64,000 nucleotides of DNA from an uncultured bacterium (GCA_963719425.1 OY970382.1:586880-650879); one strand, 5' to 3'. Numbered from the stretch's first letter, positions 45,942-64,000 are shown. The notes: generated by a model from the letters alone, not told the origin. Program-made: numbers and translations.

Positions 45942-46052
45942 CCCGTTAGGGCATCGGTTCGAGAGACCTTCCGGCCTCGGATTTTGCTATCTTTTTGAAA
46001 CGCAGTTCAGGCGACGAATCGCGACAGGTGTCTAGGACTCGAACCTCAAGAT

Positions 46053-47513
46053 CTAATAAGCCGCGGTCACCGTCCGATGATACGGCTTTTCGTGCTTGCT
46101 CTTGTCTTGCCCCATGAGCCAGAGGTGATCATTGATGCCAATAGGCATGACTCGCTTGCCGATCTTTTCGAGTTCCTGTCGGATGAATTCAATCGCCCAG
46201 ATAGTGTTTGCGCGGATATCGATCTCTTCCTGTTCGCCGTGGATCAGAGGAGTTTTGCTGTCCACCTTCTCCGCCAGACTTTTTGTATACGAGATAATAC
46301 CCAGCGTCCTCAACGACTGTGGAAGCTTGTAATCAGCGCATGCGGTGAGTCGCTCGGCGTTCGTGAGATTACCGTAGCCCTTCCTATCGAAAAGTTGGTA
46401 GATGTCGGCGACCAAGAGCTGCGCTCGCTTGTAAAATTCAATCTTCTGGCCGTAGAAGATGGCGGTGTCGTCAAATGAGGGAAAGTTCCGGATGATGTGT
46501 CCCAAGAGTTTCACGGCGTCGCCATTGGCTTGTTTCACGAATTCTGTGAAGCTGCCTCCATTGTTTTTCATAAGGTGGGCGGCGACCTCCTTCGTGATTT
46601 TCCATCGCTCTTCAAAGAGCGGAATTTCCACGTTGCCTCCCAAGATTTCTTGATATTCTCTTCTGCTTATCTTCGATCGGTATTTCGCGTCCAGAATCGG
46701 CTTGCCGTTCTCAAGCGCCCGCAGGATGGCGGCCACCATGCCCCATGAACCGTCGTAGCGCTCGCCGCGATATTCTACCATCCACTTCGGATCGCCCCAG
46801 TAGCAGAAGCTCGTGGAGTTGAAGACCAAGAGGAAGTTCAGTTTCTCTTCGTCGCTCAAGTGCGAGAAGCTCAACGGGGAGCCGCTTAGCCAATGTAGAA
46901 CATTGCGATGCTTGAATGTTTTGGCGAATTCGGTGATTTTCTCTCTATCGATTTTTACATACTTCGACTTCTCGACCGCGATCCGGGTCGTTTCCAAAAC
47001 CTTGGGTTCTGCAATGATAAGGAACAGTTTTATGGTCGACTTGAACCCTTCCGTATATTTCTTCGGATTCGCCTGCATGTCCTTCAAAACGTTTTCTGGC
47101 TTTGCCCAGTACACGCTCTTGACCTCGTCCTCTTTGAGCCGCACAGGATTTGCCTTGCAGACGTATACCCTGAACATATGCCTGCTATCGAACGCCTCAC
47201 CGTCGAAGTTCTTACCGACGTCGCGGGCTTGTGTCGAACCTATACTGCGCAGCTGAACGCCCGCGACGCCAAGCTCTTCTTCCAATTCGCGCTTGGCCGC
47301 AACGAAGTATTCCTCTCCGGCATCTACGTGGCCCGCCGACGAATGATCAAGATGGCCGTCTTTCGCCCGCTCGTTCACGAGAATTTCTCCTTTGTCGTTC
47401 ACGAGGTAAATGACGGCGACCCGATGGAGCAGTCCTTCTTTATGCGCCTTCCGGCGCGTTACCTCACCAATCACATTGTCGCGGTCGTCGACCCAGATGA
47501 CATTATTGTTCAT
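46053..47513 (-). CDS. Nudix hydrolase fused to a Qng1/DUF2419 queuosine-salvage domain
   Basis: N-terminal Nudix box GHVDAGEEYFVAAKRELEEELGV. The C-terminal roughly 330 aa carry FYKRAQLLVADIYQLF, ADYKLPQSLRTLGII and EEIDIRANTIWAIEFIR, which match conserved Qng1 (C9orf64) blocks. Confidence 0.7.
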   Translation of the reverse strand: MNNNVIWVDDRDNVIGEVTRRKAHKEGLLHRVAVIYLVNDKGEILVNERAKDGHLDHSSAGHVDAGEEYFVAAKRELEEELGVAGVQLRSIGSTQARDVGKNFDGEAFDSRHMFRVYVCKANPVRLKEDEVKSVYWAKPENVLKDMQANPKKYTEGFKSTIKLFLIIAEPKVLETTRIAVEKSKYVKIDREKITEFAKTFKHRNVLHWLSGSPLSFSHLSDEEKLNFLLVFNSTSFCYWGDPKWMVEYRGERYDGSWGMVAAILRALENGKPILDAKYRSKISRREYQEILGGNVEIPLFEERWKITKEVAAHLMKNNGGSFTEFVKQANGDAVKLLGHIIRNFPSFDDTAIFYGQKIEFYKRAQLLVADIYQLFDRKGYGNLTNAERLTACADYKLPQSLRTLGIISYTKSLAEKVDSKTPLIHGEQEEIDIRANTIWAIEFIRQELEKIGKRVMPIGINDHLWLMGQDKSKHEKPYHRTVTAAY

Positions 47514-48261
47514 ATTTATTCTTGAGATACTTATCCACGAATTTTCCGACTTCTTCGTTTACTTGCTTGATTACTTCTGGATGATAGCGATAATCATGAT
47601 CGCAATCCACTTTCACTACAATTTTCGGCTCTGGCACTTCGGCAAATAATTTTTCAGCTATTTCGGTTGGGGTAAATTCGTCTTGTGTTCCATAGATTAA
47701 AAGCTTCGGTTTCGTGAGGGTTCTTAAAATTTCTCCCGCATTGTATTGTTTACCATCCTCCCAATAAGCGATCGGCAGCTTGAATTCCTTCCGCTCTTTC
47801 GTTATAGAAGTTCCGGGTGGCAAATCCCTGCGCGATAACTTATACCCTTGTTTAGCTGCATCTTCGCCCGGGGCAGTAGGTTCGCCAAAATTCGCCATGA
47901 TTGGTACGAGGCCGACCACAGCAGGATTTGAGCTTGCGAATATCGCCGTGGCCGCCCCTCGGCTGTGACCGATTAACAGAGTTGGCCTGTTCCCGAAATA
48001 TTCAATCAGTTCATTAACGGCCTTGATGTAATTCGTGGTGGTATATAAATCGATGCTACCCGGGCTTTCCCATGTGCCCGGCGGGTCAAACGCTACCGCA
48101 TAAAAACCTCGTTCAGCGAGATAATCCGCATGGCTTGGAAAACATGCGTAATCTTTGGTGTCCAGTCGGCCGGGCAAAATCAACGCTAACTTCTTCGCAC
48201 TTCGATCACCTCGCGAAAGCACTGCAAGTTCAAACGATTTTGTTTTGATGACATCTCCCAT
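47503..48261 (-). CDS. alpha/beta hydrolase (dienelactone hydrolase/esterase-like)
   Basis: GHSRG nucleophile elbow. Start moved to MGDVIKTK (48261) to avoid an 89-nt overlap with the upstream gene. Confidence 0.65.
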   Translation of the reverse strand: MGDVIKTKSFELAVLSRGDRSAKKLALILPGRLDTKDYACFPSHADYLAERGFYAVAFDPPGTWESPGSIDLYTTTNYIKAVNELIEYFGNRPTLLIGHSRGAATAIFASSNPAVVGLVPIMANFGEPTAPGEDAAKQGYKLSRRDLPPGTSITKERKEFKLPIAYWEDGKQYNAGEILRTLTKPKLLIYGTQDEFTPTEIAEKLFAEVPEPKIVVKVDCDHDYRYHPEVIKQVNEEVGKFVDKYLKNKYEQ

Positions 48262-48262
48262 A

Positions 48263-48724
48263 TTATTGTCCCCAATCGATGAGTTCAGTAAACCGCAGAT
48301 AGAAGCCAAATGGATCCTCGACCCTGAAATCACGCCAGAGCGTATCGCCATCTTTCTTATCCATGACGGGTTGTTTGATGTGATCTTTTATCTTTGGCTC
48401 TATCTCGCCATAGAACTCATTAATGCGTGTAATGGGAATTGTCACCTCGGTTGCATACCCGCGCTTTGTATCTTTGGGAAAATTCTTGAAGTAGGATTGG
48501 TCGTAAACTTTCTCGCTGCCGCCATAAAAATTAAGGATTGTATCACCTTCGACAGCGCGCCGTTTTAGCACGAGGTAACCGGACTCTGTCGCGGTAATTG
48601 GGTTCTCCATAATTGGCGTGAAGCCAAGGAGACCGTAAAACTTTTTTGCGACATCGAAGTCTGGGACATGAAGCTCGATAATGAGGTTGTTCCGTATGGG
48701 GTTTGTCATTTTCAAAAGCAGCAA
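48263..48724 (-). CDS. VOC (glyoxalase/bleomycin-resistance) family protein
   Basis: IELHVPDFDVAKKFYGLLGF beta-alpha-beta-beta-beta module. Confidence 0.65.
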   Translation of the reverse strand: MLLLKMTNPIRNNLIIELHVPDFDVAKKFYGLLGFTPIMENPITATESGYLVLKRRAVEGDTILNFYGGSEKVYDQSYFKNFPKDTKRGYATEVTIPITRINEFYGEIEPKIKDHIKQPVMDKKDGDTLWRDFRVEDPFGFYLRFTELIDWGQ

Positions 48725-48741
48725 CGATTGCGTTATCGTCT

Positions 48742-49350
48742 TTAAGTATCAGCTTTAATCAACTTAACGATTTCAGGAAACTTCGGCACATTAAAATGTC
48801 CGTTCTTGCTCTTATACACAACAATGTGCGCGTTCTTTAGTTTCTTCCTATATTTTTCGGCCTGGGAAACGGGTACTATATCGTCATCCTTGGAAAAAAG
48901 GAGGTGGAGATTTCTACAATTCTTCTCAATCAACGAGAGATTTACCTTCAGCTTAAAGCCGCCAACCAGATCCTCCTCGGGTAAGGTGTTGTCGAATGGC
49001 GGGCAGACTAAATATGCTGCCAAGGCCTTCCTGGGCAATTTGTTTTCAGAGAGATATTTTGCGAGAAAAACCCCACCAAGCGAAGAACCTATCAAGATAA
49101 AGTTGCTCCCCAAAATGGGGACATACCGCTCAAAGATAATTTTCCAATCTCGATATTTCGCGTTGTCTTGCAGGGGCATACGCGGCGCAATGATCTCGAA
49201 TTTCCTGCCCAGGCTTTTTTCGAGATAGTCGCCAGCCCAATACACTTTTTTCTTCGCCGAAATTTTTTTAGTTCTGAGGTAACGAAGATAATCCTTCTCG
49301 CTTTTGAAGGTCATTCCACCGTGCACTGTTAAAATTCGGATCTTTTTCAT
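48742..49350 (-). CDS. alpha/beta-fold serine hydrolase (RBBP9/YdeN-like)
   Basis: GSSLGG nucleophile motif, about 200 aa. AT-rich gene. Confidence 0.55.
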   Translation of the reverse strand: MKKIRILTVHGGMTFKSEKDYLRYLRTKKISAKKKVYWAGDYLEKSLGRKFEIIAPRMPLQDNAKYRDWKIIFERYVPILGSNFILIGSSLGGVFLAKYLSENKLPRKALAAYLVCPPFDNTLPEEDLVGGFKLKVNLSLIEKNCRNLHLLFSKDDDIVPVSQAEKYRKKLKNAHIVVYKSKNGHFNVPKFPEIVKLIKADT

Positions 49351-49367
49351 ATTTGTAGTAACGCAGT

Positions 49368-50381
49368 TTAAATTTCTAAAACGATTTTCCCCATCTGTTT
49401 ACTTTCTTCCATCCGCCGCTGAGCTTCCGCGGCCTCTTTGAGCGGAAAAACTTTATCAACCACTGGCTTTAACTTGCCATCGTTAAAAAGTGAAACCACT
49501 TTTTCAAATTCTGTTTTCGTGCCCATGCGTGCGCCCAAAATCGTAAGTTGGCGGTAATATATTTCGCTTAAATCCTGCGTTCCCATATCTCCGCTCGTCG
49601 TCCCTGCGATGACGACCCGGCCATACGGACGAAGCATCATCAAGCTCGTTTCCCAAGTCTTCGCGCCGACGCTCTCGAAGACCGCGTCAACGCCGCGCCC
49701 ATTTGTCAGCCGCCTTACAGAATCTTCTACGCTCCCTTTGGTATAAATAACAACTTCACTCGCACCGTTTTCTTTGAACCTCTTTGCATCTTCCTCTGAT
49801 TTTGCTGCCGCGATGATTTTTGCACCGAGATATTTTGCAACTTGCATGCCAGCGGAGCCCAATCCGCCAGAAGCGCCCCAGATAAAAACAGTTTCTCCTT
49901 TTTGGAGATTTGCCCGGCTGGTAAGCATATGCCAAGCAGTAAGAAAGGTGAGCGGAAATGCCGCGGCTTCGGGGAAAGAAAGATTCTTGGGCTTTGGATA
50001 GAGTTGCCCAATGGGGATGGTAACGTACTCGGCGTACCCCCCTTGAGTTTTATAACCAAAGATCGTAACCAATTCACACGCTAACCCATTTTCACAGGGT
50101 GGACATACACCGCAGGAAATCGCCGGATTTATGATCATCTCGTCTCCGATGTCCAATGAGCTTTTCCCATTGATCTTCTCTATCACTCCGGCAACATCTG
50201 AGCCGGAGATATGAGGCATCGGACCCTCTATTTTCCCTCTCCGCTGTTGGACGTCGAGGTTATTAATCGCACATGCTCGCACTCTCACAAGAGCTTCGCC
50301 TATTTTTGGTTCGGGGGTCGGGACCTCTCCGTATTTCAAGACTTCCGTTCCGCCCGTCTTTTCAAAAAATATCGCCTTCAT
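49368..50381 (-). CDS. zinc-type alcohol dehydrogenase / quinone oxidoreductase (MDR family)
   Basis: GroES-like N-domain and Rossmann GASGGLGSAGMQ. Confidence 0.85.
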   Translation of the reverse strand: MKAIFFEKTGGTEVLKYGEVPTPEPKIGEALVRVRACAINNLDVQQRRGKIEGPMPHISGSDVAGVIEKINGKSSLDIGDEMIINPAISCGVCPPCENGLACELVTIFGYKTQGGYAEYVTIPIGQLYPKPKNLSFPEAAAFPLTFLTAWHMLTSRANLQKGETVFIWGASGGLGSAGMQVAKYLGAKIIAAAKSEEDAKRFKENGASEVVIYTKGSVEDSVRRLTNGRGVDAVFESVGAKTWETSLMMLRPYGRVVIAGTTSGDMGTQDLSEIYYRQLTILGARMGTKTEFEKVVSLFNDGKLKPVVDKVFPLKEAAEAQRRMEESKQMGKIVLEI

Positions 50382-50431
50382 GGTTGAGAAATGTTCTATA
50401 TGAGAAATATAACAGAAAAAACCGCAGAAAA

Positions 50432-51778
50432 CTAACTGTTTTCTTCAATCAAAATCTGCTTGTTCTTCAGCTTCAACCAACTCTTCAGGTTCACAAGCAA
50501 CTCTCGCTTCTCGGTAATGCTGCCCTCTTTGAGGAGATATTTTGCGTAGGTCTTGAAATCGATATCCTCAGCTTCTTTCTTTATCTTTTGCTCGATTTTG
50601 TCGATGCCAAACATGGCTCGTTTGAAGTGCTTATAGCGCTCAATCTCTTCCTCAAATTTCTTTTTAACGCCGATCTCATTCATATCAATCTGGTCCATAA
50701 GCTTCACGAGTTGCGCGATAAGATCCTCTTCCCGGATCGCCCCGCCCTTGCAGTGCAAATCGCGGCTCCGTGTGCAGGCATAATAGACGTAACGATGTAC
50801 GTTGCCATTCTTCTGCTTCTTGAACTTCTCATCGGCCGTGATGCCCGATCCGCACTCGGCGCATTTGATGAGCTTCGTGAAAGCGAACTCTTTTGATTCC
50901 CGCTGGATATGATCGCGCTTCAATTGTTCCTGCACTTTGTCGAAGAGATCCCGTGAGACGAGCGGCTCGTGTTTCCCGTTGTACCAGTTACCGCTTTTCT
51001 GGGGATATTCGAAGACGCCGTAATAAAAAGTGTTTTGTAAGATCACGTAGATATTTCCGAGCGATAAATGATGGTTGCTCTTCGTCCGGAAGTTCAGCTC
51101 GAATTTGAGCCAGTGGAAAAGCTTTCTCCCAGACCAGCGATCAAATGCCACTTTCTCAAACATCTTTTTGATCACAGGCGCTCGCTCGGCGTCGATGATA
51201 ACTTGGCATTTCCGCTCGGCAAGCCGCTGCGTGAGGTAGCCTGTTGGCGGGGTCGTTGGCCACAATCCCATCTCGCATCGTGCCCGCTGACCTCGCCTGA
51301 TATTCACCCCTCGGTTATCGTTCTCGAGTTTCGCCTGCGAACACAGGATCATAAGAAGGAATTTCTCATTCGGCGAATTCGAGAAATGCTGGCCATACGT
51401 CCGTATCTCGAGCAATAGTTTTTGATCCATCAGATCAACGAGCGAACCGAGGTCGCCCGCGTTCCTGCTTAACCGATCCGGCGCCCACGTGAGGATGCCG
51501 TTGAACTTGCCCATACGAAGATCATTAATCATCTCGTTGAAGATCGGCCGCTGCCCGGTCGCTTTCGCCGAGTGGCTCTCCCGCTTCATCTCCACAATCT
51601 CCAAATTCTCACGTTCTGCGATCTGAAGCATCTCCTTAATTTGCGAGTCGATGGAAAGGATCTGACGCTCCTCCGATTCAGTGCTTTTTCTTGCGTAGAG
51701 GCAGTATTTGACCTTTATGGGAATCTCCACTGTTGGCTGGATCCCGACTCCCCGGGGATCCGTTGTTTTTGCGGTCAT
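50432..51778 (-). CDS. large serine recombinase (integrase/resolvase family)
   Basis: N-terminal resolvase domain (YARKSTESEERQILSIDSQ), recombinase domain and a C-terminal zinc ribbon (CAECGS...YYAC) with coiled-coil. Confidence 0.85.
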   Translation of the reverse strand: MTAKTTDPRGVGIQPTVEIPIKVKYCLYARKSTESEERQILSIDSQIKEMLQIAERENLEIVEMKRESHSAKATGQRPIFNEMINDLRMGKFNGILTWAPDRLSRNAGDLGSLVDLMDQKLLLEIRTYGQHFSNSPNEKFLLMILCSQAKLENDNRGVNIRRGQRARCEMGLWPTTPPTGYLTQRLAERKCQVIIDAERAPVIKKMFEKVAFDRWSGRKLFHWLKFELNFRTKSNHHLSLGNIYVILQNTFYYGVFEYPQKSGNWYNGKHEPLVSRDLFDKVQEQLKRDHIQRESKEFAFTKLIKCAECGSGITADEKFKKQKNGNVHRYVYYACTRSRDLHCKGGAIREEDLIAQLVKLMDQIDMNEIGVKKKFEEEIERYKHFKRAMFGIDKIEQKIKKEAEDIDFKTYAKYLLKEGSITEKRELLVNLKSWLKLKNKQILIEENS

Positions 51779-51899
51779 ACCACAAGGGATGACGCAACGG
51801 CGGGTGGAGTCCAGGGCTCGCTACAAGGCGACGAAGAGACGAATGATGCAAGGAGCGACCAAACCATTGTTGTGCTTCTACGATTGACGGTCTCTGCGT

Positions 51900-52409
51900 G
51901 TGGGGCTTATGATTCGCGTAAACAAGATTAGTATCTATATGGCCGCTAAATCCAAAGTGGAACTCGTAAAGGAGGTCCGAAGTAAAATAGAATTTTCTAT
52001 CGTGGTGGCGATCTTCTTTTCGTCCCTGTTTTATATGGCGAGCAAAGCGAGCGGATCAAGTGATATCCAATCCAACAGCAACGGTTTGATCTGGGGCATC
52101 GCCGTCGCGGTCCACATTTTAAATTATCTCCTGATCGATCTGTTGGGCGGAGAGATAAAGAAAAACTGGTTCGCCTGGATTCGGGCGTCCCTCGTCCTTG
52201 GCATCCTCGCATTCGTTCCGGCCATTATCATCACGGTTGTGTATTACAACAAGGCCCTGCCTGTGGGATATGCCCTTACTTTTGAGGCCTCATTGATTGC
52301 GGCGCTCGCGATGCCAGTCCTGACATTTTTCCTCATCTGCGGGCACCTCGATTGGATGGCGATCAAGGGTTTCTGGAAAATGATACGTGATACATTTAGC
52401 AAGCAGTAA
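51900..52409 (+). CDS. hypothetical membrane protein (169 aa)
   Basis: Four predicted TM helices. An alternative start is at 51939. A terminator follows. Confidence 0.4.
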   Translation: MGLMIRVNKISIYMAAKSKVELVKEVRSKIEFSIVVAIFFSSLFYMASKASGSSDIQSNSNGLIWGIAVAVHILNYLLIDLLGGEIKKNWFAWIRASLVLGILAFVPAIIITVVYYNKALPVGYALTFEASLIAALAMPVLTFFLICGHLDWMAIKGFWKMIRDTFSKQ

Positions 52410-52465: not shown

Positions 52466-53263
52466 TTACAGCTTGTATTGCGGTATATCCCCGTACTGCG
52501 GATTTCCTGCCTCAATGGCGTTTTCCGCTTGCCGTAAGTTGCTTGCCAACACCGTACAACCAACATATGAATTGGCACGCTCCGCGCTTGGCATCGTGTC
52601 GAACTCTTCCCTGATGAACGCGCAGAGGTGAATGTCGTTCTGAACCGTTGCGAGGCCGCCCCAATTGATCTTTGTATACAGCGGTCGATCCACCACGTAC
52701 GACATGAGCAAGCTGCTTGTCGAGTTGCCGTACTGGTCGGTCGTCTGTCCGTAGAAGGCGACGAGCACGTCGTAGAAGTTCGGATCAATCGGGAAGACGT
52801 TTTGGAATATCCCGGCAGCAAGTTGTCCGCTGCCAGTGATAAATGAATCTTCATTGAACGTTTCGCCCGTATTGATGTCGACCGTAACATACTCCGATCC
52901 CTTCGGCTTGTTCGAATCGTCGCTTTCGATGTTTGCATCTTTATACGATACCTGCATCGATGTTTGCTGTAGTTGCGCCTTCACCGCGTCATCCAATTTC
53001 TGTTGCGCCGTTTCCGGTACGGCAGTTTGTGCCGGTGCGGCTGCCGTCTGATTTATTGAGGGGGTAGATGCTGGCGCATTGTCCGTCGGCGTAATCGAAA
53101 CGCCGATAACAAAGAGAACGATGGTCGCAATGCCAAACGTCCAGCCAATCTTTTTTCTCGTGGCGTTGCCTTTGAAGACCTTATTAAAGTAAGGCGGCTT
53201 GATAAGCCCAACGACAAGCGCGACAAGCGACAGAAATGCTAGCACTCCGAATAATGGTCCCAT
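52466..53263 (-). CDS. hypothetical membrane-anchored protein (266 aa)
   Basis: Start chosen at MGPLFGVLAF (ATG 53263), which precedes two TM helices. The ORF track extends to a GTG at 53434. Confidence 0.4.
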   Translation of the reverse strand: MGPLFGVLAFLSLVALVVGLIKPPYFNKVFKGNATRKKIGWTFGIATIVLFVIGVSITPTDNAPASTPSINQTAAAPAQTAVPETAQQKLDDAVKAQLQQTSMQVSYKDANIESDDSNKPKGSEYVTVDINTGETFNEDSFITGSGQLAAGIFQNVFPIDPNFYDVLVAFYGQTTDQYGNSTSSLLMSYVVDRPLYTKINWGGLATVQNDIHLCAFIREEFDTMPSAERANSYVGCTVLASNLRQAENAIEAGNPQYGDIPQYKL

Positions 53264-53564
53264 GGTTTTGCTGATTTTCGTTTCGACCTTTGCGGAGCGG
53301 CCTGTTTGCCCTCCAACAACATGAATGACGCAACGGCCATGGAAGTCCAGCGTCCACGAAGGCCCAAAAACTCTGAACCCCGTGTCAGCTAGGCCTTGCG
53401 GCCCCATACCGGTTTCCCGATATGGCCCAATCACGAGTCGCTGAACGCGGGGTTCAGAATTCGTGATTGGGTCTTACGAGCCATGCCGAGCAAGACGCTT
53501 GGTTTAGACTCAGGGGCTTGCGCCCCACTATTCAGTTGTTGCCTTTATGATAGCGCTTTTAATG

Positions 53565-56593: not shown

Positions 56594-56598
56594 GAGGG

Positions 56599-57861
56599 TT
56601 ATTGCGTTAGCTTTTTATATCTGGCGACGATGAGGTCGCAGAACACGGGCTCCAATTCGACGAGGTAGGCCCGGCGTTTCAATTGGTGCGCGGCCACGAG
56701 CGTGCTGCCGCTTCCAGCAAAACTGTCCAAGATGATGTCGCCTGGCCGCGTACAGCGCCTGATCGCTTTTTCATGGAGAGTCGGCGGCTTGGCAGTCGCA
56801 TGCGTGTACTCGGTGCCCGGCAGTCGCCGCACGAGCCACAGATCAAGTTGGTCCAGAATGTCGTCGATCAGCCGATTGCCAGACGAGAGTTCCTTGTTCT
56901 GGATCTCGTTGAACGATTGAAGTCCCCTCGCGAGGAACGGCTTCCCGCGAACGCCATAGACCGCCGGTTCGTAGCACTTTGAAAAGGCGACGTCGGGCGT
57001 CGGGTTTTGCCCGTTCTTAACCCACAGGCACACGCGCTTGTTGTGGATGCCGAGTTCGGCATAGAGGGTCTGCAAAAGCCATACGTAGCTCTGGTCGCAG
57101 TAATAAAAGACGTGCGTATCGTCCTTCGCAACAGCAAGTGCGTTCACGATGCTCTCACGCAAGAACTCCTTGTATTCCGGATCGCTCCGTGTGTCGTTCA
57201 CGGTTGCCCCGTAGTTCGCGTGGCCGCCCACGCCTTTCGCGTATGACACGCCGCCTTTGAGGTTATAAACGGGATCAGAATAAATCATGGACGCCTTCTC
57301 GCTCCCGAAGAGTTTCTTCAAAATAGCGGCGTCGGTCGCATCGCCGCAAATCAATTTATGAGGGCCGAGCGTGATGACGTCGCCGAGCTTCGTCTTCGGT
57401 TTCTTTATTTTTTCCAGCTCGCGATCAATGTTGAATTCGTCATCTTCCACTTCCGCGATGTCGTCCCAGAGGTGCGCCAGTTCCTCGTCTTTAAAACCGA
57501 CGGTCAATAACAATTCCGTGTCGAATGTGCGGAGCAACTCGTATGCCCAGTCGCCACGCACGGCGTTTGAGGTGAGTAAGTATTGTTCGAACTCACGCTT
57601 CGTCAATTTGCGGTTCGGCACGCGCACTTCTATCTCCTCATTGCCGCGCCCCAAAAGTTGCAGCGCCTTCAACCTTTGGTGACCGGCGACCACCGTGCCG
57701 TCCGCGTCGATCGCGGGAAGTTCCACGACATTGAATTTCTTTAAACTATTTTTGAGCGCTTCAAGCTGCGCTTCGCCGATGGTGCGAGGATTTTTGGAAA
57801 ACGGAACGAGGGCGTTGATAACTTTTTTTTCCGTATGCCAAGTCAAAGATTGTTTACTCAT
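56599..57861 (-). CDS. ParB-like nuclease domain fused to a DNA methyltransferase
   Basis: N-terminal ParB/Srx fold (ELPAIDADGTVVAGHQRL), then SDPVYN (motif IV variant) and DSFAGSGST. Confidence 0.85.
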   Translation of the reverse strand: MSKQSLTWHTEKKVINALVPFSKNPRTIGEAQLEALKNSLKKFNVVELPAIDADGTVVAGHQRLKALQLLGRGNEEIEVRVPNRKLTKREFEQYLLTSNAVRGDWAYELLRTFDTELLLTVGFKDEELAHLWDDIAEVEDDEFNIDRELEKIKKPKTKLGDVITLGPHKLICGDATDAAILKKLFGSEKASMIYSDPVYNLKGGVSYAKGVGGHANYGATVNDTRSDPEYKEFLRESIVNALAVAKDDTHVFYYCDQSYVWLLQTLYAELGIHNKRVCLWVKNGQNPTPDVAFSKCYEPAVYGVRGKPFLARGLQSFNEIQNKELSSGNRLIDDILDQLDLWLVRRLPGTEYTHATAKPPTLHEKAIRRCTRPGDIILDSFAGSGSTLVAAHQLKRRAYLVELEPVFCDLIVARYKKLTQ

Positions 57862-57871
57862 GTTTTATTGA

Positions 57872-58111
57872 TTAATGCTTTGGGGTAAGGCAGCGACCGA
57901 CATCGCGCCAGAATGATGGCTCAGTTTGCCAATGTTCCAAGACGGGCACGGCAACGCCGAGCGATTGAGCGAATGCCTTCAGGGCACTGGGCGTTTTTTC
58001 CCTCATTGCGGCATACCACTCTGCGAACGCAAGACGCTTGCGCGGGTCGCGATTCTCGAGCACAAGGAGCGCGTTCCCGGGATTGTTTGATGTTTGAGGT
58101 TTATTTTTCAT
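57872..58111 (-). CDS. hypothetical protein (about 80 aa)
   Basis: The ORF opens at 58180 and an internal ATG at 58111 is preferred. No motif. Confidence 0.3.
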   Translation of the reverse strand: MKNKPQTSNNPGNALLVLENRDPRKRLAFAEWYAAMREKTPSALKAFAQSLGVAVPVLEHWQTEPSFWRDVGRCLTPKH

Positions 58112-58265
58112 TGATGCGATAAAAGTGTTCTCTGGCCTTTTTCTTTTAATGGAAACATCCCACCCCACTCCCTCGTCCAATCCATTTTTTATGAGAAATA
58201 CAACAAAAAATGCCGACTTTTCGGCATTTCACTTTTCGCTATCCACTGGAGAGGGCGAGGGAGTC

Positions 58266-59078
58266 CTACGAATCAGAGATTTCTATAACTTTGTATTCTT
58301 CGTTAATCATATAGCCGCTTGGAGCGTGCGAGATGATGAAGCGTTGGTCCTCACGTTTCCCGAGAGAAAAGGTACGACGGGCGGTGACGTTCATTACGCG
58401 GATTGCTTCTCGGAGCGATCCGGCGTTTACATAATCGGTTTTCCCGCGCAGCTCGTCGGTTGACACAAAAGACTCTCGTCCCAAAAGCGCCTCAAAGATT
58501 TGGCGGCGCATTTTATCCAAATGATAGCACTGCGAAGATTTTGATCTGCGATATAAATTCCCGTCAGTTTGATTGAATATAAAAACATTAACGTTCGTCT
58601 CGCCGGATGCAGACATAATCGGCAGCGTCGTCAGTAATTTCTGCGCTGTCTGCGTGCTGATTTTGGAAATCACCTCTTCGCTCAACTCAACTTTATTATT
58701 TGTCTCTGGCCCTGGACTTCTCATCGCCGGACGCGGCGGAGGCAACATCGTAATCCTCGGCGGCCAATCAAGAGAGGTTTTGATAATTTTGGAATAATTG
58801 TCTGCCAGCTTGGCAATGTCCATTATGCCGGAACTTCTCATCGCATTAGAGAGATTTTCAGCCATAGCGCTAAACTGTCGCATCATGGGTTCGGCGTCGA
58901 TCGCCAATTTTTCCATAACCGCTTGTATTTTCATATTCTGCTCGGCGAGATACCGCTGCCCTTCCGGCGTAGTGAAATATTCCCGCGCTGTCATTTCGAG
59001 AGCGGACTTTTCCTTTTTCATAATGGCCGTCGTGGTAGGCTGGACGATTTTTTCTGTTTTACGTTTCTGCTTGGGCAT
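58266..59078 (-). CDS. hypothetical protein (270 aa), divergently transcribed from the LexA-domain giant gene
   Basis: Intact ORF with a Lys-rich N-terminus. No motif. Confidence 0.4.
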   Translation of the reverse strand: MPKQKRKTEKIVQPTTTAIMKKEKSALEMTAREYFTTPEGQRYLAEQNMKIQAVMEKLAIDAEPMMRQFSAMAENLSNAMRSSGIMDIAKLADNYSKIIKTSLDWPPRITMLPPPRPAMRSPGPETNNKVELSEEVISKISTQTAQKLLTTLPIMSASGETNVNVFIFNQTDGNLYRRSKSSQCYHLDKMRRQIFEALLGRESFVSTDELRGKTDYVNAGSLREAIRVMNVTARRTFSLGKREDQRFIISHAPSGYMINEEYKVIEISDS

Positions 59079-59172: not shown

Positions 59173-59204
59173 GTTGACACCTGAGTATTTACTCAGGTAA
59201 TATA
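59173..59204 (+). promoter_or_regulatory. sigma70 promoter (TTGACA, 18 nt spacer, TAATAT) with a perfect palindrome CCTGAGTA-TT-TACTCAGG in the spacer (candidate operator)
   Basis: Consensus -35. The dyad-symmetric site sits between -35 and -10, about 10 nt before the start codon of the LexA-DBD gene. Coordinates are within 1 nt. Confidence 0.5.
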
Positions 59205-59209
59205 CTCTT

Positions 59210-62200
59210 ATGGCAAAACCCATCACTGGACGACAACTCGAAGCCCTCCAGAAGATACAACTTCTTTCCGGGCGCGGCACCCCTCCAACTTTTAAAGAAC
59301 TTCGTAGGGCGCTGGGGGTCGCGTCCGACCAGGGTGTTATAGAGCTGGTGGATCACTTAATCGCGGGCGGCTATCTCCGAAAAGATGTCGGCCAAGCTCG
59401 CGGCATTTTTTTGACTCCGAAGGCGCATCTGACGCTCGGGCCGTCCGCGAAAGGAACCGATGAGCAAAGCGCACGAACGTTCCGCTTCAAGCCGGTCCAA
59501 AGGCGAGTGTACGAAGGTCTCCTGAGAATCGATCCGCGCTTGGGCCGCGCGTACGAAGGCGGCTTGCGCGTATTGCTCGATCGTAGCAATCCAGAAAGTA
59601 TTTCCCAGTCGGCTCATTCTATGCGGGAAATAGGCATGATGCTTGCCCGTAAAGCCGGAGAACCCAAAGATGATGCGAAAGATGAAAAGAGCAAGGAACG
59701 AAGCGCCTTTTCCAAAAAGATCTGGAAGGTGCTCGATCCTCGCGGGGGAACCACGGAACTCAAAACGGTTTACGATATTTGGAACGAGGAATTCCAGACG
59801 TTTTTCACGAAAATCGCGCACCATAACAATGGAGAAGAAGTTCCGCGAGAGGCGTACGACAAGAAGTTGGCCGAATTTGATGAGCTTTTACGATATGTCC
59901 TTGCCTTTCAAACGGAAATATACGAGGAGATCGACGGAATAATCAAAAAGGGCCCGGGCAAAGCTCACCCTCAACGTTTGGCGTTCTTGATCAAACGAAA
60001 CGTGGAATCGTATGGCTATTTCTTCCGGAACGCCAACGCGTCATGGCTCGATTTTTTGAAGGCCAATCTTCTCTTGACCTCGACGTGGGAGGTTGGCCAG
60101 TATCTTTTAAAAATCGCCAAAGAAAAACCCGCTGACGTGATGGACGTCATACTCAAAATGAAAGCCGTTCCGATGGCGTGGCGCATCAGGGATGCCATGG
60201 TGACGGCGGCCTCTAAAATGCCGTCGGATGTTGCGGCGAAGATTGTCCCTAAAATCGTTCGCCAGGAACACTGGCTCGAAACTACGCCCGGCCACTTGCG
60301 CGACCTGCTGCTCCACTCCCTAAACGATCTTCTGAAGACCCTTATCTCGGGCGGAAAATATCCAGAAGTCTTGAGCCTTACGCATAAGATGCTGGAGGTC
60401 AAAGTCACCGTCGATCCGACGACGAAACGAGCGATCGAGCGGCCGATGGACAGTTATTATTACGGCGAAATAATAAAAACTTTGCACACCCTGCCCGATG
60501 AGCAAGCCGGGAATTTGGCGAAGGTTCTTCGCGAGAAACTTTGCGAGGCGATCGCCGTTGAATCACCAGAAAGAAACGAGCAAGATTATTCTCATATCTG
60601 GCGTCCGGCCATTGAGGCAAACAGGCAAAATTGGGGGAACGAGAATACCAAGGAAATTTTGGTGACCGCTTTGCGCGATTTTCTGGAACGCCATGTCGCA
60701 TTTCTCATACAAACGGGCGCGACCGATATTCCCAAAAAAATCGCCGCGATCTTGGCGAATAAAATTGACTACGCCATTTTGAAGCGGTTGCGCCTCCATG
60801 TTTATCGTTTGCATATTCTCCAATTCAAAAGGGAAATTCCCGCTGAGCTACTTCGGAACGAAGAGGATTCGGATTTGTGGCATGAATATTTCCTACTTCT
60901 TCAAGCGGCGTTTTCTGAGATGCCCGCCGCATTTCAGCGTTCTTACGTCGCCCGCCTTTTGAAAAAGAAGCCTCGCAACATCCGGAAAGAAATGATTCCG
61001 TATTGGCGGGCGCGCCGCCTCGTGGCGATCAAGAATTATCTCCCGGAAGGAACGGCGAAGAGGTTTGAGAAAATGATTTCAAAATTTGACGATGATGACG
61101 CCGCCTTCACGATGCGACACGAAACCTTCCACGGCCCGACTTCTCCGTTGACCGAAGAAGAGATGGAAAAGGCCACGATCGAGGAATTGGTGGAGCGTTT
61201 TATAACGTGGGAACCTGCGTCCGACATTTTTTCTCCTTCCCGAGGAGGCCTCGGCTTGAGCTTCGCGAACGTCATAAAGAAACAGCCCGATCTTTATATC
61301 GGGAAGGTGACTCTTTTCAAAAACCCGAGGTTGCGACCCGTTTTTTTCTATCATCTTTTCGGAGCGCTGAGGGAAGTGTTGCACAAGCGGGGCGATCGGG
61401 ACTGGTCCGGCGTGGTGGATCTTGCGGCTTATCTCGTCCAGAACGGTCAAAAAGGTTTATTACCGGTTTTCGAGGATCCCAAAGAACGGGAGGCCGATTG
61501 GAACGATGTTTTCCAGAACGTGGCCCATTTTTTGAGCGACGGGTTGCAGTTCCAAGAGTACGGTTTCAAAAAAGATGATGATGAAAAGATATGGAATTGC
61601 ATTCAATTTCTTTGCCAAAACGAAGACCCGACCCCGCAGCGCGAGAAACAATACATGGAAGGGAATTTCGATCCCTACGGTCTTTCAATCAACACCGCCC
61701 GGGGGCAGGCATTCCACGCCCTCATCATGTACATCTTTTGGGCCAACCGAAACGCGAAAGCCGCGAAGCGCTTTATACCGGAAGGAGTAAAAACAATATT
61801 AGAAGAGCACCTTGACGTTTCCCGCGACGGCAGCTTGGCCGTCCGGTCGGTGTACGGCAGATTCTTCCCGTGGCTTTATTCCCATGATCGTGAATGGGTT
61901 GAGAAAATTACCCCTCTCATTTTCCCCGATGACAATGAGGAGCTTTGGTATGCCGCATGGGAAGGTTATCTTTTCACTTTCTTCGGCGACGTGTATCGCG
62001 CGTTCCGCGGTCTTTATGACAAAGCAATAGAAAAAATCGCGACACCGAAGCCGACCAGGCGCTATTTTATAGATCCCGTCGAAAGGTTGGGCGAACACGT
62101 CATGGTGGGGCTGGCCCACGGTTACGACGATGCCGGGGTCGCTCCGCTTTATGAAAAATTTTTCGCAAAAGCGAACCCAAAGCAACGAGGCGACGCCATC

Positions 62201-62698
62201 AGTTTCGCCGGCAGGCATTGGATCGTACGTGATCAAATACCCGAGGGTGAGCGATTGACCAGCACGAAACCGTTGGAGAAGTTTTGGGAATGGAGACTGA
62301 AAAATTCAAACTCCCCGGAGGAACTCCGGGAATTCGGTTGGTGGGTGAAGCCGGGTGCGTTCGACGATCGATGGATGCTTGAGAATCTCATCTGGACGCT
62401 GGAAAAAACGGAGGGGGATGTTGATGGGGAATTTAAAGTGATACAAGCGTTGGCCGAGCTCGCCGACAAGCACCCCCTCGCGTGCGCCAAGGTCATTTCC
62501 TTGGTCACACGCTCGCGTGTTAGGGAGAAAGTCATTTTTCACACCAACGAGGATGAAATAGGGCAAGCCCTGAAGAAAATATATGCTTCTAAAAACAAAG
62601 ATGCCCTTGAACTGGCCGATGGGATCGTCGATCACCTCACCAAGCTGGGCTTCGAGAGATTCCGATATATAAAAACACCGAGAGAGCCAGAGAAATAA
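59210..62698 (+). CDS. 1162-aa protein with an N-terminal LexA-type winged-HTH DNA-binding domain fused to a large alpha-helical repeat region of unknown function
   Basis: ITGRQLEALQKIQLLSGRGTPPTFKELRRALGVASDQGVIELVDHLIAGGYLRKDVGQARGIFL resembles the LexA N-terminal domain. No S24 peptidase domain follows. The rest is helical with no known motif. Confidence 0.7.
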   Translation: MAKPITGRQLEALQKIQLLSGRGTPPTFKELRRALGVASDQGVIELVDHLIAGGYLRKDVGQARGIFLTPKAHLTLGPSAKGTDEQSARTFRFKPVQRRVYEGLLRIDPRLGRAYEGGLRVLLDRSNPESISQSAHSMREIGMMLARKAGEPKDDAKDEKSKERSAFSKKIWKVLDPRGGTTELKTVYDIWNEEFQTFFTKIAHHNNGEEVPREAYDKKLAEFDELLRYVLAFQTEIYEEIDGIIKKGPGKAHPQRLAFLIKRNVESYGYFFRNANASWLDFLKANLLLTSTWEVGQYLLKIAKEKPADVMDVILKMKAVPMAWRIRDAMVTAASKMPSDVAAKIVPKIVRQEHWLETTPGHLRDLLLHSLNDLLKTLISGGKYPEVLSLTHKMLEVKVTVDPTTKRAIERPMDSYYYGEIIKTLHTLPDEQAGNLAKVLREKLCEAIAVESPERNEQDYSHIWRPAIEANRQNWGNENTKEILVTALRDFLERHVAFLIQTGATDIPKKIAAILANKIDYAILKRLRLHVYRLHILQFKREIPAELLRNEEDSDLWHEYFLLLQAAFSEMPAAFQRSYVARLLKKKPRNIRKEMIPYWRARRLVAIKNYLPEGTAKRFEKMISKFDDDDAAFTMRHETFHGPTSPLTEEEMEKATIEELVERFITWEPASDIFSPSRGGLGLSFANVIKKQPDLYIGKVTLFKNPRLRPVFFYHLFGALREVLHKRGDRDWSGVVDLAAYLVQNGQKGLLPVFEDPKEREADWNDVFQNVAHFLSDGLQFQEYGFKKDDDEKIWNCIQFLCQNEDPTPQREKQYMEGNFDPYGLSINTARGQAFHALIMYIFWANRNAKAAKRFIPEGVKTILEEHLDVSRDGSLAVRSVYGRFFPWLYSHDREWVEKITPLIFPDDNEELWYAAWEGYLFTFFGDVYRAFRGLYDKAIEKIATPKPTRRYFIDPVERLGEHVMVGLAHGYDDAGVAPLYEKFFAKANPKQRGDAISFAGRHWIVRDQIPEGERLTSTKPLEKFWEWRLKNSNSPEELREFGWWVKPGAFDDRWMLENLIWTLEKTEGDVDGEFKVIQALAELADKHPLACAKVISLVTRSRVREKVIFHTNEDEIGQALKKIYASKNKDALELADGIVDHLTKLGFERFRYIKTPREPEK

Positions 62699-62889
62699 AT
62701 GTTACACGTCTCGGCGGGGCGGCGATGCTCCATAAGCGCTGTATTTCTTAATCTTTTCGGAAAATGTTACCCTGATTGTGACATGCCCCTCCCGTGTAAC
62801 ATTTGTAACATTTTGCTCCTTTTCCAAAACTCCGAGAGCGACCTCCCGGCTTCGAAAACCACGTTTCCAAGAAAGCCCTGAAAGGCTCA

Positions 62890-64000
62890 TCAAAAAGAGG
62901 TTCCCGACCGATGATCACCGCAAATAGAGACTTCGCGATCAGAAAGAAATTTACCCTGCGTCCGCGCGGCGGACGCAACTGCCAAAATCTCGCGCCGCTT
63001 CGCGGCAAACTGGCTGGGTTCGGAAAATTCAAACAGGGCGGATTTATCACGAACCCTCGGGTTCGTTCCGATTTTTTGGACAAACGTTTTCAGATCACGG
63101 AACGTGCCGCCGTTTGCCAAAAAATCCGCTTGCTTCGTATCTTGTATCCATCCCCGCAAGGGTTCGACCCAGTTTTTTCTCCCGCGTTCAAAATCGTTCA
63201 GTTTTTCTTGGAGCGAGGCCGAGGCGCGCAACAATTCGTCCTTCCGTTTGAGATAGGTCGGCTTGGGGATGTCGCCATCCAGATAAGTTGAAACGAGCTT
63301 CTCCATCCGCGCCTCATTCGCCTTGATCTCATCGTTCAGATTTTGAACCGCGCTTTGCGACACCGATACATCTCCATTCTCCCACTCTTTGACCTTGCCT
63401 AGCATCCAATCGGTGTAGCGGTCGGAAAGCGCGATGGTTTGAAGCCGTACTTTGATCTGTCCCGCCAGCTCTGGCTCTTGGAGATAGGACTGCGAGCACC
63501 CGCCGCGCTTCTTGGAACAGCGGTAGTAGCGGTATTTCGTGCCCCAGCGATTGGTCGTCCACTGCGCGGAGATCATGGAGCCGCACTCGGCGCACCTGAA
63601 GAGTCCCGTGAAAGGAAAATCGTGTTTCGCGCGGCGGTGGCGCGGCCGTTCTTTGGACTTCAATACCTTCTGCACGGCTTCAAACAATGCGGGAGAAATA
63701 ATGGGTTCAAATTTTCCCTCAAACCATTCGTCGTTGTGCTTCACGAAACCGAGATAGGCGCGGTTCGTCAAAAGCCGCTTGATGGAAAATTTGGCAAGGG
63801 GCGTTCCGTTCTTAGAGACAACACCGAGGTCTTTCAGAAATAAGGCGAGGGACACGAACGAGTGCGTGCCTTTTTCGTACTCCTCGAAGGCGCGGCGGAC
63901 GATGCGGGCTTCCGTCGGATGCGGCTCGATGTTGCGCTTCAAGGGATTGTTCTGATAACCGAACGGCGCAAGATTGAGCCACTCGCCCCGCCGCAATTTC
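62890..64000 (-). CDS. large serine recombinase. The window holds the C-terminal recombinase and zinc-ribbon domains. The N-terminus lies beyond the window end.
   Basis: Recombinase domain, Zn ribbon CAECGS...YYRCSKKRGGC and coiled-coil. The ORF is open to position 64000. Confidence 0.8.
   Translation of the reverse strand, partial: KLRRGEWLNLAPFGYQNNPLKRNIEPHPTEARIVRRAFEEYEKGTHSFVSLALFLKDLGVVSKNGTPLAKFSIKRLLTNRAYLGFVKHNDEWFEGKFEPIISPALFEAVQKVLKSKERPRHRRAKHDFPFTGLFRCAECGSMISAQWTTNRWGTKYRYYRCSKKRGGCSQSYLQEPELAGQIKVRLQTIALSDRYTDWMLGKVKEWENGDVSVSQSAVQNLNDEIKANEARMEKLVSTYLDGDIPKPTYLKRKDELLRASASLQEKLNDFERGRKNWVEPLRGWIQDTKQADFLANGGTFRDLKTFVQKIGTNPRVRDKSALFEFSEPSQFAAKRREILAVASAARTQGKFLSDREVSICGDHRSGTSF

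Follow-up and report, generated by a model that had tools for sequence, protein, structure and literature searches.

Results

The stretch of DNA analysed here (the window, 64,000 nt) comes from an ultra-small bacterium of the CPR/Patescibacteria, as indicated by its IF-2 relatives, which are 'Minisyncoccia'/Saccharibacteria MAGs. Beyond a tRNA-Ser(GCU) gene lie five lower-GC metabolic genes, a large serine recombinase (SR1), a membrane-protein gene preceded by a LOOT RNA, a large (TerL) and a small (TerS) terminase gene, two DNA methyltransferase (MTase) genes, a 1162-aa protein gene and a second large serine recombinase (SR2) cut by the window end (Table 1). Relatives and family loci are designated below by an L and a number.

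Table 1. Features of the accessory region (window coordinates) and the basis of their assignment.
Position	Strand	Feature	Basis
45854-45944	+	tRNA-Ser(GCU); its 3' end faces the 3' end of SR1 (convergent), as in other family loci	ARAGORN; Rfam; family-wide tRNA/SR geometry
45945-46052		tRNA flank with a terminator-like hairpin; candidate tRNA-proximal junction of the accessory block, exact att site not resolved	blastn and sequence comparison with relative L001
46053-47513	-	Nudix + queuosine-salvage (Q_salvage) fusion protein	Pfam; homologue search
47503-48351	-	alpha/beta hydrolase	Pfam
48263-48724	-	153-aa ORF	no hit in Pfam, NCBIfam or PDB sequences
48742-49350	-	Ser_hydrolase-family protein	Pfam
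49368-50381	-	Zn-dependent dehydrogenase / quinone oxidoreductase family (Zn-ADH)	Pfam; NCBIfam
50432-51778	-	SR1, large serine recombinase, integrase of the terminase module	Pfam (Resolvase + Recombinase + Zn_ribbon_recom); PHROG 95 integrase; identity to SRs downstream of TerL
51900-52409	+	169-aa multi-pass membrane ORF of unknown function; promoter-like site at 51884-51913	sequence analysis
52466-53263	-	LOOT-led gene: membrane-anchored protein with a TM helix, a Pro/Thr-rich linker and an extracytoplasmic domain; the mechanical ORF extends to 53434 and overlaps LOOT, likely start Met58	sequence analysis; weak PHROG hits
53391-53510	-	LOOT RNA (Rfam RF03000), full length, four hairpins	cmscan; own covariance model; covariation
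53547-53576	-	sigma-70-like promoter (TTGAAA-18-TATCAT) about 35 nt upstream of LOOT	consensus match only
53565-55365	-	TerL (Terminase_6 type), split by a +1 base in the G5 run at 55108-55112; repaired protein 599 aa with a Gly/Ser-rich C tail	PHROG 38, E 2.5e-63; weak Pfam 6N/6C hits
55340-55828	-	TerS (small terminase)	PHROG 4044, E 2.7e-11; its cluster (cluster 3) lies directly upstream of TerL in 86 loci
55829-56593	-	N6/N4 DNA methyltransferase (MT1)	Pfam; PADLOC; PHROG
56599-57861	-	ParB_N-like + N6/N4 DNA methyltransferase (MT2), the most constant neighbour of TerL	Pfam; PHROG; MTase upstream in 90/93 loci
57872-58180	-	102-aa ORF of unknown function	
58207-58230	-	intrinsic-terminator-like hairpin + T-run between the 270-aa and 102-aa ORFs	sequence analysis
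58266-59078	-	270-aa ORF of unknown function; first gene of the leftward operon	
59174-59203	+	promoter (TTGACA-18-TAATAT) of the 1162-aa gene; the perfect palindrome CCTGAGTAtttACTCAGG (59180-59197) between the hexamers is a LexA-box-like operator, inferred from sequence	sequence analysis
59210-62698	+	1162-aa protein: LexA-type winged-helix DNA-binding domain + predicted all-alpha solenoid homologous to the C-terminal (sensor) region of DSR1; no SIR2 domain	Pfam; PADLOC Dsr1; AF2 model; Foldseek; homologues
62697-62813		four copies of AAATGTTAC (two on each strand) between the convergent ends of the 1162-aa gene and SR2; candidate protein-binding or junction site	only copies in the window (4 observed, 0.33 expected); an independent Logan contig ends at 62893
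62890-64000	-	SR2, large serine recombinase of another lineage, cut by the window end	Pfam (Recombinase + Zn_ribbon; catalytic N-terminus lies beyond 64000)

The observation on which this work rests, namely a tRNA-Ser-associated block with two serine recombinases, lower-GC cargo, TerS/TerL and two MTases but no portal, capsid or tail gene, is confirmed. Indeed, Pfam and PHROG searches returned no portal, capsid or tail hit for any ORF between 51.8 and 64 kb. GC content is 0.45-0.51 over 46-53 kb and 58-63 kb, against about 0.55 for the core, while the MTase-TerS-TerL stretch is 0.56-0.58, like the host. Nucleotide synteny with the closest relative, L001 (IF-2 88% identical at the amino acid level), ends at 45985, although by eye it is traceable to about 46040. 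The stand-alone 318-aa form of Q_salvage is common in CPR (up to 80% identity), whereas the Nudix fusion is rare, with one other example.

Several points of the preliminary description had to be amended. The 153-aa ORF that it called a VOC protein is unconfirmed, as no database searched gave a hit. The TerL gene carries one extra base exactly in its Walker A motif (AFRG|SGKTT), and the LOOT RNA had not been noticed. We found no repeat of the tRNA-Ser 3' end within the window, but att direct repeats are not expected for serine recombinases. The preliminary description had proposed comparison with related genomes as a test, yet the far side of tRNA-Ser proved non-syntenic in all four relatives examined, so that no clean empty site exists.

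The LOOT match scores 73.3 bits against a gathering score of 46.4 and covers model positions 1-121; our own covariance model gave 91 bits. In the alignment, which was fitted to the model, 96.5% of cells are paired against 28-42% in slid controls, and 21 of 26 pairs show double changes. LOOT occurs in 34% of the family loci described below, about 57 nt upstream of a variable gene that usually encodes a membrane-anchored protein.

In the 1162-aa protein, residues 374-1151 match positions 465-1217 of 1227 of the PADLOC Dsr1 model (E 1.3e-39). The N-terminus is a LexA_DNA_bind wHTH, no SIR2 hit was obtained, the AF2 model is all-alpha after residue 70, and no enzymatic fold is predicted. Its closest homologue (88%) sits in the cargo slot of another element and not at the regulator position.

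A recurrent terminase module

More than 1,148 TerL homologues reach E<=1e-10, at about 50% identity; nearly all named ones are from CPR, and many sit on 0.2-0.9 Mb chromosomal contigs. In 134 non-redundant loci drawn from these homologues we found the same module order: ParB-MTase, (MTase), TerS, TerL, variable cargo, SR1-type recombinase. An MTase lies upstream in 90 of 93 loci, TerS lies directly upstream of TerL in 86, and a same-strand SR lies downstream in 82, with a median gap of 1.1 kb (range 16-9546 bp). The Walker A/B and nuclease Asp residues of TerL are invariant in 30 diverse members, and the repaired TerL of the window keeps 78 of 81 family-invariant residues.

None of the 134 loci has a structural gene within ±10 kb of TerL. 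Portal and capsid clusters occur only in true phages whose TerL matches the family query at 26-36% identity, and HMMs of 67 phage-only clusters hit only TerS and MTases in family loci. Defence systems fill the cargo slot, which comprises type I, IIG and III R-M, PLD+SNF2, UG/DRT-type RT, PDC-S11 and a DSR1-like protein, and phage-type regulators (LexA/S24, ImmR/ImmA-like) sit at the divergent position. A tRNA gene lies convergent with the SR gene, 95-4500 nt downstream, in at least 20 loci, with Ser isoacceptors enriched. The related genome L003 has an SR1 orthologue (62.6%) plus LOOT beside the same tRNA-Ser, and tandem arrays occur on single contigs.

SR1 belongs to this module. It is 57-70% identical to recombinases that follow TerL in unrelated CPR genomes (57-63% for L016 and L020), and 79 recombinases lying downstream of TerL on the same strand in other loci are 41-70% identical to it (median 56.7%). 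SR2 is of a different lineage, 24-34% identical to nearly all others, but 73.6% identical to an SR next to a TerL module in locus L134.

Discussion

The interpretation given in the preliminary description, of two tandem serine-recombinase elements with the second a satellite-like or degraded phage element, is only partly supported. The region is indeed a tRNA-Ser-associated accessory region with large serine recombinases and a capsid-less, phage-derived element, and 'satellite-like' fits better than 'degraded'. However, the partition that it proposed is not supported, as SR1 is the recombinase of the TerS/TerL module and not of the hydrolase block.

Our best reading, which we hold with moderate confidence, is that the core of the 18-kb block (about 50.4-62.7 kb) is one member of a large, conserved and apparently undescribed family of compact, phage-satellite-like integrative elements of CPR bacteria. 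Read on the minus strand, it comprises a divergent regulator or cargo gene, small ORFs, the ParB-like MTase and a second MTase, TerS and TerL, a cargo slot (here the LOOT-led membrane-protein gene plus a membrane ORF), and an SR1-type recombinase pointing at the 3' end of a tRNA gene. As a tRNA gene lies convergent with the SR in the family, the five low-GC metabolic genes most plausibly lie inside the same element, as cargo between SR1 and the tRNA-proximal end, but this is inferred. With no synteny beyond tRNA-Ser in any relative, and Q_salvage being a common CPR gene, they could also be ordinary variable chromosome. SR2 most likely ends a neighbouring element whose body lies beyond 64000.

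What our analysis demonstrates is the architecture, its conservation, the absence of structural genes in the regions inspected, the defence cargo in the slot, the tRNA-convergent geometry, and LOOT as a covarying RNA upstream of mostly membrane-protein genes. The mechanism, including dependence on a helper phage, is inferred. In this view SR1 would integrate and excise the element next to the tRNA, and a phage-type repressor would keep the packaging operon silent; in relatives this would be LexA/S24 or ImmR/ImmA, and here the LexA-wHTH fused to a DSR1-like sensor, with an operator in its own promoter, may play that role. On induction, the element's own TerS/TerL would recognise and cut its DNA and load it into procapsids supplied by a helper phage, which would make the element satellite-like, while the MTases would protect the transferred DNA. 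In the resident state, the element would benefit its host through defence cargo and a LOOT-controlled surface protein, possibly for superinfection exclusion.

Several observations weigh against this view. We identified no helper phage, and no excised or circular form among the contigs examined. No primase, Rep or other replication module was recognised among the window ORFs or the recurrent upstream clusters, nor was a capsid-size-redirecting gene, unlike in PICIs, P4 and PLEs. A satellite that brings its own TerL must still dock on a foreign portal, which is unusual. The closest homologue of the 1162-aa protein sits in a cargo slot and not at the regulator position. Finally, the TerL of this copy is frameshifted, so this particular element may be immobile, and the element ends and att sites remain undefined.

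Among known systems, the phage-inducible chromosomal islands (PICIs/SaPIs) are likewise small (about 8-18 kb), site-specifically integrated islands with a phage-type repressor, their own small terminase and accessory/defence cargo, and no tail genes; the proposed helper dependence is also shared. However, the integrase here is a large serine recombinase and not a tyrosine integrase, both TerS and TerL are encoded, a ParB-MTase is a constant partner, the host is CPR, and no primase/replicase, capsid-remodelling gene or Ppi/Rpp-type redirecting factor was found. Capsid-forming PICIs (cf-PICIs) also encode their own TerS and TerL, but together with capsid, portal, protease and head-tail adaptors, none of which occurs here or in the 134 family loci. 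Markers of P4-like and PLE satellites (Psu/Sid/Delta/alpha primase; PLE RepA, TcaP etc.) gave no hits in Pfam and PHROG scans of all ORFs, general scans which would be expected to pick up such domains, as opposed to dedicated satellite-marker models.

Temperate Caudoviricetes using serine integrases share the MTase-TerS-TerL order, the LexA/CI or ImmR/ImmA control and the LSR integrase, and the Terminase_6-type TerL has its best isolate-phage matches in Mu-like phages, at about 25% identity. Nevertheless, no morphogenesis, lysis or replication modules are present in the element, and the nearest true phages in IMG/VR, in which TerL is followed by a portal, have TerLs that match the family query at only 33-36% identity. 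The LOOT family (Weinberg et al. 2017 motif collection) was reportedly known only from metagenomes, without host or function; here it is placed in CPR integrative elements. As for DSR1 (defence-associated sirtuin 1), the SIR2 NADase effector is absent from the 1162-aa protein and a LexA-type wHTH replaces it.

Of the alternatives, a non-transferring defence island survives best, although we consider it unlikely. TerS/TerL and the ParB-MTase would be domesticated to interfere with the packaging of invading phages or to cut their DNA, and the recombinase would only move the island occasionally. The cargo is overwhelmingly defence systems, no replication or capsid genes are present, and satellites such as PLEs interfere with helper packaging. 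However, no PADLOC model matches TerL or TerS, and the module keeps the canonical phage order under phage-type repressors. It is also tightly linked with an integrase and tRNA-adjacent sites, and occurs in tandem copies; these features indicate a mobile element.

It is also improbable that the element produces particles without a helper, as a GTA-like system or split prophage with capsid and tail genes elsewhere in the same small genome. Only ±10 kb around TerL was inspected in relatives and only 64 kb here, and dispersed GTA loci exist in other bacteria. Yet variable cargo, integrase linkage, tRNA targeting and tandem copies point to a mobile element and not to a domesticated host function, and the long chromosomal flanks in L016, L018 and L020 show ordinary host genes.

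Equally doubtful is the original partition, with a first element running from tRNA-Ser to SR1 with hydrolase cargo and a second, the TerS/TerL module, integrated by SR2. SR1 and the five metabolic genes do share low GC and one strand with short gaps, an SR2-like recombinase lies beside the TerL module in L134, and tandem elements exist in the family. However, SR1-type recombinases follow TerL in 79 loci, including in distant CPR genomes, and none of the five metabolic genes recurs in any of 183 loci.

The least likely alternative is a decaying prophage: the TerL frameshift, the lack of structural genes, the mosaic GC and the split TerL of another family copy (L136 versus L023) would fit, but independent decay would not converge on one architecture in 134 loci from many CPR lineages with invariant catalytic residues, and since the repaired TerL keeps nearly all invariant residues and eight neighbouring core genes are intact, the lesion is recent or an assembly error.

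A bolder reading, which is not excluded but remains tentative, is that of a CPR-specific class of 'terminase-only' phage satellites, minimal LSR-integrating elements that carry their own TerS/TerL motor and ParB-methylase but no capsid or replication genes. They would hijack procapsids of still-unknown CPR phages, or initiate in-situ (lateral-transduction-like) packaging next to tRNA genes, and would serve as the main vehicles of defence systems in these tiny genomes. LOOT RNA would then be their dedicated leader or regulatory RNA and, in this copy, the wHTH-DSR1-like fusion would act as a phage-sensing repressor, analogous to SaPI Stl.

CPR/Patescibacteria make up a large share of bacterial diversity, yet only one or a few of their phages and very few defence systems have been described (PMC12366544), and genomic islands with R-M systems have been noted without a mechanism being given (PMC12455944). 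One member of the family lies in the genome of Ca. Microsyncoccus archaeolyticus (L016), which is reportedly maintained in co-culture; if so, experiments are feasible. A conserved, abundant element that couples a packaging motor and a serine integrase to a swappable defence slot would explain how defence genes move among these reduced genomes, and would provide a handle for finding CPR helper phages through TerL-portal compatibility. It would also add a satellite design that brings its own TerL but no capsid, and would give the orphan LOOT RNA a host, a genomic context and a testable role.

Gene content of the region downstream of tRNA-Ser(GCU)

ARAGORN and Rfam place tRNA-Ser(GCU) at the left end of the accessory region, and every plausible gene to its right is on the minus strand except two, a small membrane ORF and the gene of a 1162-aa protein (see the table below). 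The gene content listed in the preliminary description was found to be present, with the exception of the 153-aa ORF annotated there as 'VOC', which has no hit and is therefore unconfirmed. No ORF has a portal, capsid or tail signature. The GC content is 0.45-0.51 over the metabolic genes, SR1 (the first large serine recombinase) and the 58-63 kb stretch, and 0.56-0.58 over the MTase-TerS-TerL stretch, against about 0.55 in the core.

Features of the tRNA-Ser(GCU) region and of the neighbouring tRNA-Leu cluster
Feature	Position	Strand	Remarks
tRNA-Leu(CAA)	42834-42918
LAGLIDADG_3-domain ORF	42976-43683	+	free-standing, between the two tRNA-Leu genes
tRNA-Leu(UAA)	43695-43779
tRNA-Ser(GCU)	45854-45944	+	ARAGORN and Rfam
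Five metabolic genes	46053-50381	-	Nudix + Q_salvage fusion, alpha/beta hydrolase, 153-aa ORF, Ser_hydrolase, Zn-dehydrogenase
Nudix + Q_salvage fusion	46053-47513	-
Direct repeat, 31 nt	50394-50424 and 58185-58215		81% identity; intergenic, upstream of the ADH gene and of the 102-aa ORF
SR1	50432-51778	-	complete large serine recombinase
Small membrane ORF	51900-52409	+
ORF overlapping a structured RNA	52466-53434	-	overlap in its 5' part
LOOT RNA (RF03000)	53391-53510	-	full length; 73 bits, gathering score 46
TerL	53565-55365	-	single extra base in the G5 run at 55108-55112
TerL C-terminal tail	53565-53800	-	about 80 aa, Gly/Ser-rich, low complexity
TerS	55340-55828	-
Two N6/N4 methyltransferases	55829-57861	-	the second with a ParB-like N-terminus
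Two unknown ORFs	57872-59078	-
Perfect 8+8 palindrome CCTGAGTAtttACTCAGG	59180-59197		between the -35 and -10 hexamers of the promoter of the 1162-aa gene
1162-aa protein	59210-62698	+
Four copies of the 9-mer AAATGTTAC	62697-62813	two per strand	between the convergent ends of the 1162-aa gene and SR2
SR2	62890 to the window end	-	second large serine recombinase, cut by the window

Two features had been missed in the preliminary description. The first is that TerL is broken by a single extra base in a G5 run, exactly in Walker A (AFRG/SGKTT, broken at the slash). The repaired protein keeps 78 of the 81 positions that are invariant in 30 relatives, and eight neighbouring core genes show no frameshift relative to a close relative, so that the lesion is either very recent or a sporadic assembly error. 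Exact-sequence look-ups of IF-2, SR1, TerS and MT1 (one of the N6/N4 methyltransferases) found nothing. Another element of the family was however recovered from two samples, once with an intact TerL of 510 aa (L023) and once with a split TerL of 395+113 aa (L136), and TerL disruption, or indel error, therefore recurs in the family. The TerL of the window also ends in a Gly/Ser-rich tail that is absent from typical family members (median 503 aa), while some relatives are 700-780 aa with other extensions. The second missed feature is a full-length LOOT RNA found with Rfam, which we describe below.

Host and chromosomal neighbourhood

The gene located to the left of the tRNA is a short IF-2, whose relatives are CPR MAGs ('Minisyncoccia', Saccharibacteria), and the source contig is 887,956 bp. 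Four relatives (L001, L002, L003 and L007) keep IF-2 next to tRNA-Ser(GCU). Nucleotide similarity to the closest of them, L001, stops at 45985 and is traceable by eye to about 46040. None of the genes of the 18-kb block lies within 10 kb of tRNA-Ser in these relatives, with one exception: L003 has an SR1 orthologue (62.6% aa) in the same orientation, 1.6 kb from the tRNA, plus a LOOT RNA and a type III Mod-like cargo gene. An empty-site comparison failed, since the far side of tRNA-Ser carries different genes in every relative. This is a hypervariable hotspot, and no clean 'empty site' exists among the relatives examined.

A second integration hotspot was found in the neighbouring tRNA cluster, where a free-standing LAGLIDADG_3-domain ORF lies between the two tRNA-Leu genes. 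This interval does not align with L001, and in L002 it holds an insertion of about 7.7 kb carrying an SR2-like serine recombinase.

The terminase module is conserved in a family of loci

The repaired TerL has more than 1,148 homologues at E<=1e-10, at about 50% identity. The named sources are almost all CPR, and many of the homologues lie on chromosomal contigs of 0.2-0.9 Mb. Isolate phages reach only about 25% identity, the best being Mu-like. The contexts in Ca. Microsyncoccus archaeolyticus, in a 388-kb ENA contig and in a 148-kb scaffold show one layout, ParB-MTase, (MTase), small ORF, TerL, variable genes and large serine recombinase, with host genes beyond and no structural genes. In Ca. 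Microsyncoccus archaeolyticus (L016), a group I intron (RF00028, 89 bits) lies a few kb from the TerL element, at 18003-18231 (-) of the locus, apparently outside an rRNA or tRNA context.

A single-sequence TerL scan of IMG/VR found nothing, but a profile scan did work, and we fetched 160 more loci with a TerL profile, in which ORFs were called, clustered and counted. The counts refer to 134 non-redundant loci whose TerL matches the family query at >=37% identity. An MTase lies just upstream of TerL in 90 of the 93 loci with enough flank, the TerS cluster lies directly upstream in 86 loci, and a same-strand recombinase lies downstream in 82 loci, with a median gap of 1.1 kb and a range of 16-9546 bp. 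Portal and capsid clusters occur only in loci whose TerL matches the query at 26-36% identity, which are true phages where TerL is followed by a portal. Furthermore, HMMs of 67 phage-only clusters hit only TerS and MTases in the family loci. The Walker A/B and nuclease aspartates are invariant. This is not what independent prophage decay would produce.

Assignment of the two recombinases

SR1 is 57-63% identical to the recombinases that follow TerL in L016 and in another family locus, L020, and its median identity to 79 such recombinases is 56.7%. In contrast, SR2 is 24-34% identical to nearly all of them, and its one close relative (73.6%) lies beside another TerL module, in locus L134. SR1 is therefore the integrase of the terminase module, contrary to the preliminary description, which had split the region into two tandem elements with SR1 outside the one that carries the terminase genes. 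The interpretation proposed there is consequently only partly supported.

Tandem modules do occur in the family. Indeed, two single contigs, IMGVR_UViG_3300014205_009253 (loci L054 and L061) and IMGVR_UViG_3300033402_000781 (loci L052 and L059), each carry two complete MTase-TerS-TerL-recombinase modules, and in L061 a LOOT RNA heads a long leftward cargo operon that includes a DSR1-like gene. SR2 probably closes a neighbouring element whose body lies beyond position 64000. Two weak hints place a junction near 62.7-62.9 kb. An independently assembled Logan contig is identical over 5,809 bp and ends at 62893, and the 9-mer AAATGTTAC occurs four times in the window, against 0.33 expected, with all copies grouped between the convergent ends of the 1162-aa gene and SR2. 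This may be a junction or a protein-binding site. No terminal repeats were found in the contigs examined.

tRNA targeting and the metabolic genes

Across the family, at least 20 loci have a tRNA gene convergent with the recombinase gene, 95 to about 4,500 nt downstream. Serine isoacceptors are over-represented (GCU five times, CGA twice and GGA twice), and the tRNAs are intact. The window fits this geometry with a 4.5-kb gap. The five low-GC, same-strand, tightly spaced metabolic genes are therefore most simply viewed as cargo between SR1 and the tRNA-proximal end, although this is inferred. They recur in no other locus, and Q_salvage by itself is an ordinary CPR gene. Only the Nudix fusion is rare, with a single other fused homologue (58% identity) found against hundreds of stand-alone 318-aa Q_salvage proteins in CPR.

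Exact att sites were not found. Long direct repeats are not expected for serine recombinases, and no tRNA-derived repeat was found in the window. A 31-nt direct repeat turned out to consist of terminator T-runs, each followed by a shared motif, TATTTCTCATA, which may be a common promoter or leader element. No motif is conserved downstream of the recombinase stop codons in the family, except reverse tRNA T-arms. However, in the tRNA-Ser (CGA/GGA) flanks of loci L052, L147 and L177, a 12-nt direct repeat, (A/T)TGG(A/G)ACTTTT, lies just after the tRNA 3' end and again 160-190 nt further on, beside the recombinase stop codon. This repeat may be att-related. Reverse-oriented tRNA T-arm-like fragments also lie in these flanks.

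Cargo and regulation

Between TerL and the recombinase, or divergently upstream, the family carries type I R-M (HsdR/M/S + YgjP), type III R-M and type IIG enzymes, a PLD+SNF2 helicase (DrmD-like), UG/DRT-type reverse transcriptases (12 loci) and PDC-S11-like proteins. The divergent regulator position holds a LexA/S24 repressor in 19 of 72 loci, or an ImmR-like HTH with an ImmA-like protease.

In the window this position is occupied by the 1162-aa protein, which has a LexA-type wHTH at residues 3-65 and no SIR2 domain, and whose residues 374-1151 match the C-terminal region of PADLOC Dsr1 (E 1.3e-39). An AlphaFold model (pLDDT 76) is all-alpha after the wHTH and, in a Foldseek search, resembles only generic HEAT-repeat solenoid proteins, while phmmer against the PDB found nothing. 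The promoter of the gene (TTGACA-18-TAATAT) encloses a perfect palindrome, CCTGAGTAtttACTCAGG, which resembles a LexA box (CTGA-N8-TCAG) and is unique in the window. Only about a dozen full-length homologues exist, and the closest (88%) sits in the cargo slot of another family element. A role as the phage-sensing repressor of the element is therefore attractive but unproven, and the protein may simply be defence cargo with a DNA-binding output.

LOOT RNA

A covariance model built from four hits found LOOT in 46 of the 134 family loci and in none of the true-phage loci. An exact-pattern scan of IMG/VR, which was too narrow, gave one hit. Of the copies in the family, 39 lie downstream of TerL and 7 upstream, and 43 are on the strand opposite TerL, often divergent from the recombinase gene, the window being one of three same-strand cases. 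The 3' end of the RNA lies a median of 57 nt before an ORF on the same strand. An N-terminal transmembrane-like segment is found in 35 of 47 such ORFs (74%), against 19.5% of control ORFs, and the downstream families include DUF4352, tRNA_anti-like OB, bPH_2, SNase and PDC-S11-like.

Pairing is 96.5%, against 28-42% in slid controls, although the alignment is model-fitted. In this alignment 21 of 26 pairs show compensatory changes, and G-U pairs are frequent, which indicates an RNA on that strand. In the window, a promoter-like site lies about 35 nt upstream. We considered a retron as an explanation for LOOT but rejected it, since the RT is present in only 12 loci and, where present, lies upstream of LOOT. 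The supported reading is a 5' leader of a resident-state cargo gene.

Discussion

Our analysis shows a conserved, mobile, tRNA-adjacent and capsid-less element, which associates an intact-type packaging ATPase-nuclease with its small subunit and methylases, a serine integrase, phage-type repressors and defence cargo. Its satellite-like transfer in the capsids of a helper is, on the other hand, an inference. Against it stand the facts that no helper phage, replication module or excised form was seen in the sequences examined, that bringing one's own TerL is atypical for satellites, and that this copy may be dead. The alternatives are a domesticated anti-packaging defence island, a GTA-like system with structural genes located elsewhere, and the partition of the preliminary description, which all appear unlikely. 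A decaying prophage is the least likely, given the conservation of the module across the family.

Literature searches found no description of this family or of the context of LOOT, although they were not exhaustive and a prior description cannot be excluded. Phage-derived integrative or satellite-like islands are already known as a kind, and the window holds one member of the present family, possibly inactivated. Relative to PICIs, cf-PICIs, P4 and PLE, the gene set of the family is a distinct combination, TerS + TerL + ParB-MTase + LSR, with no capsid and no replicon.
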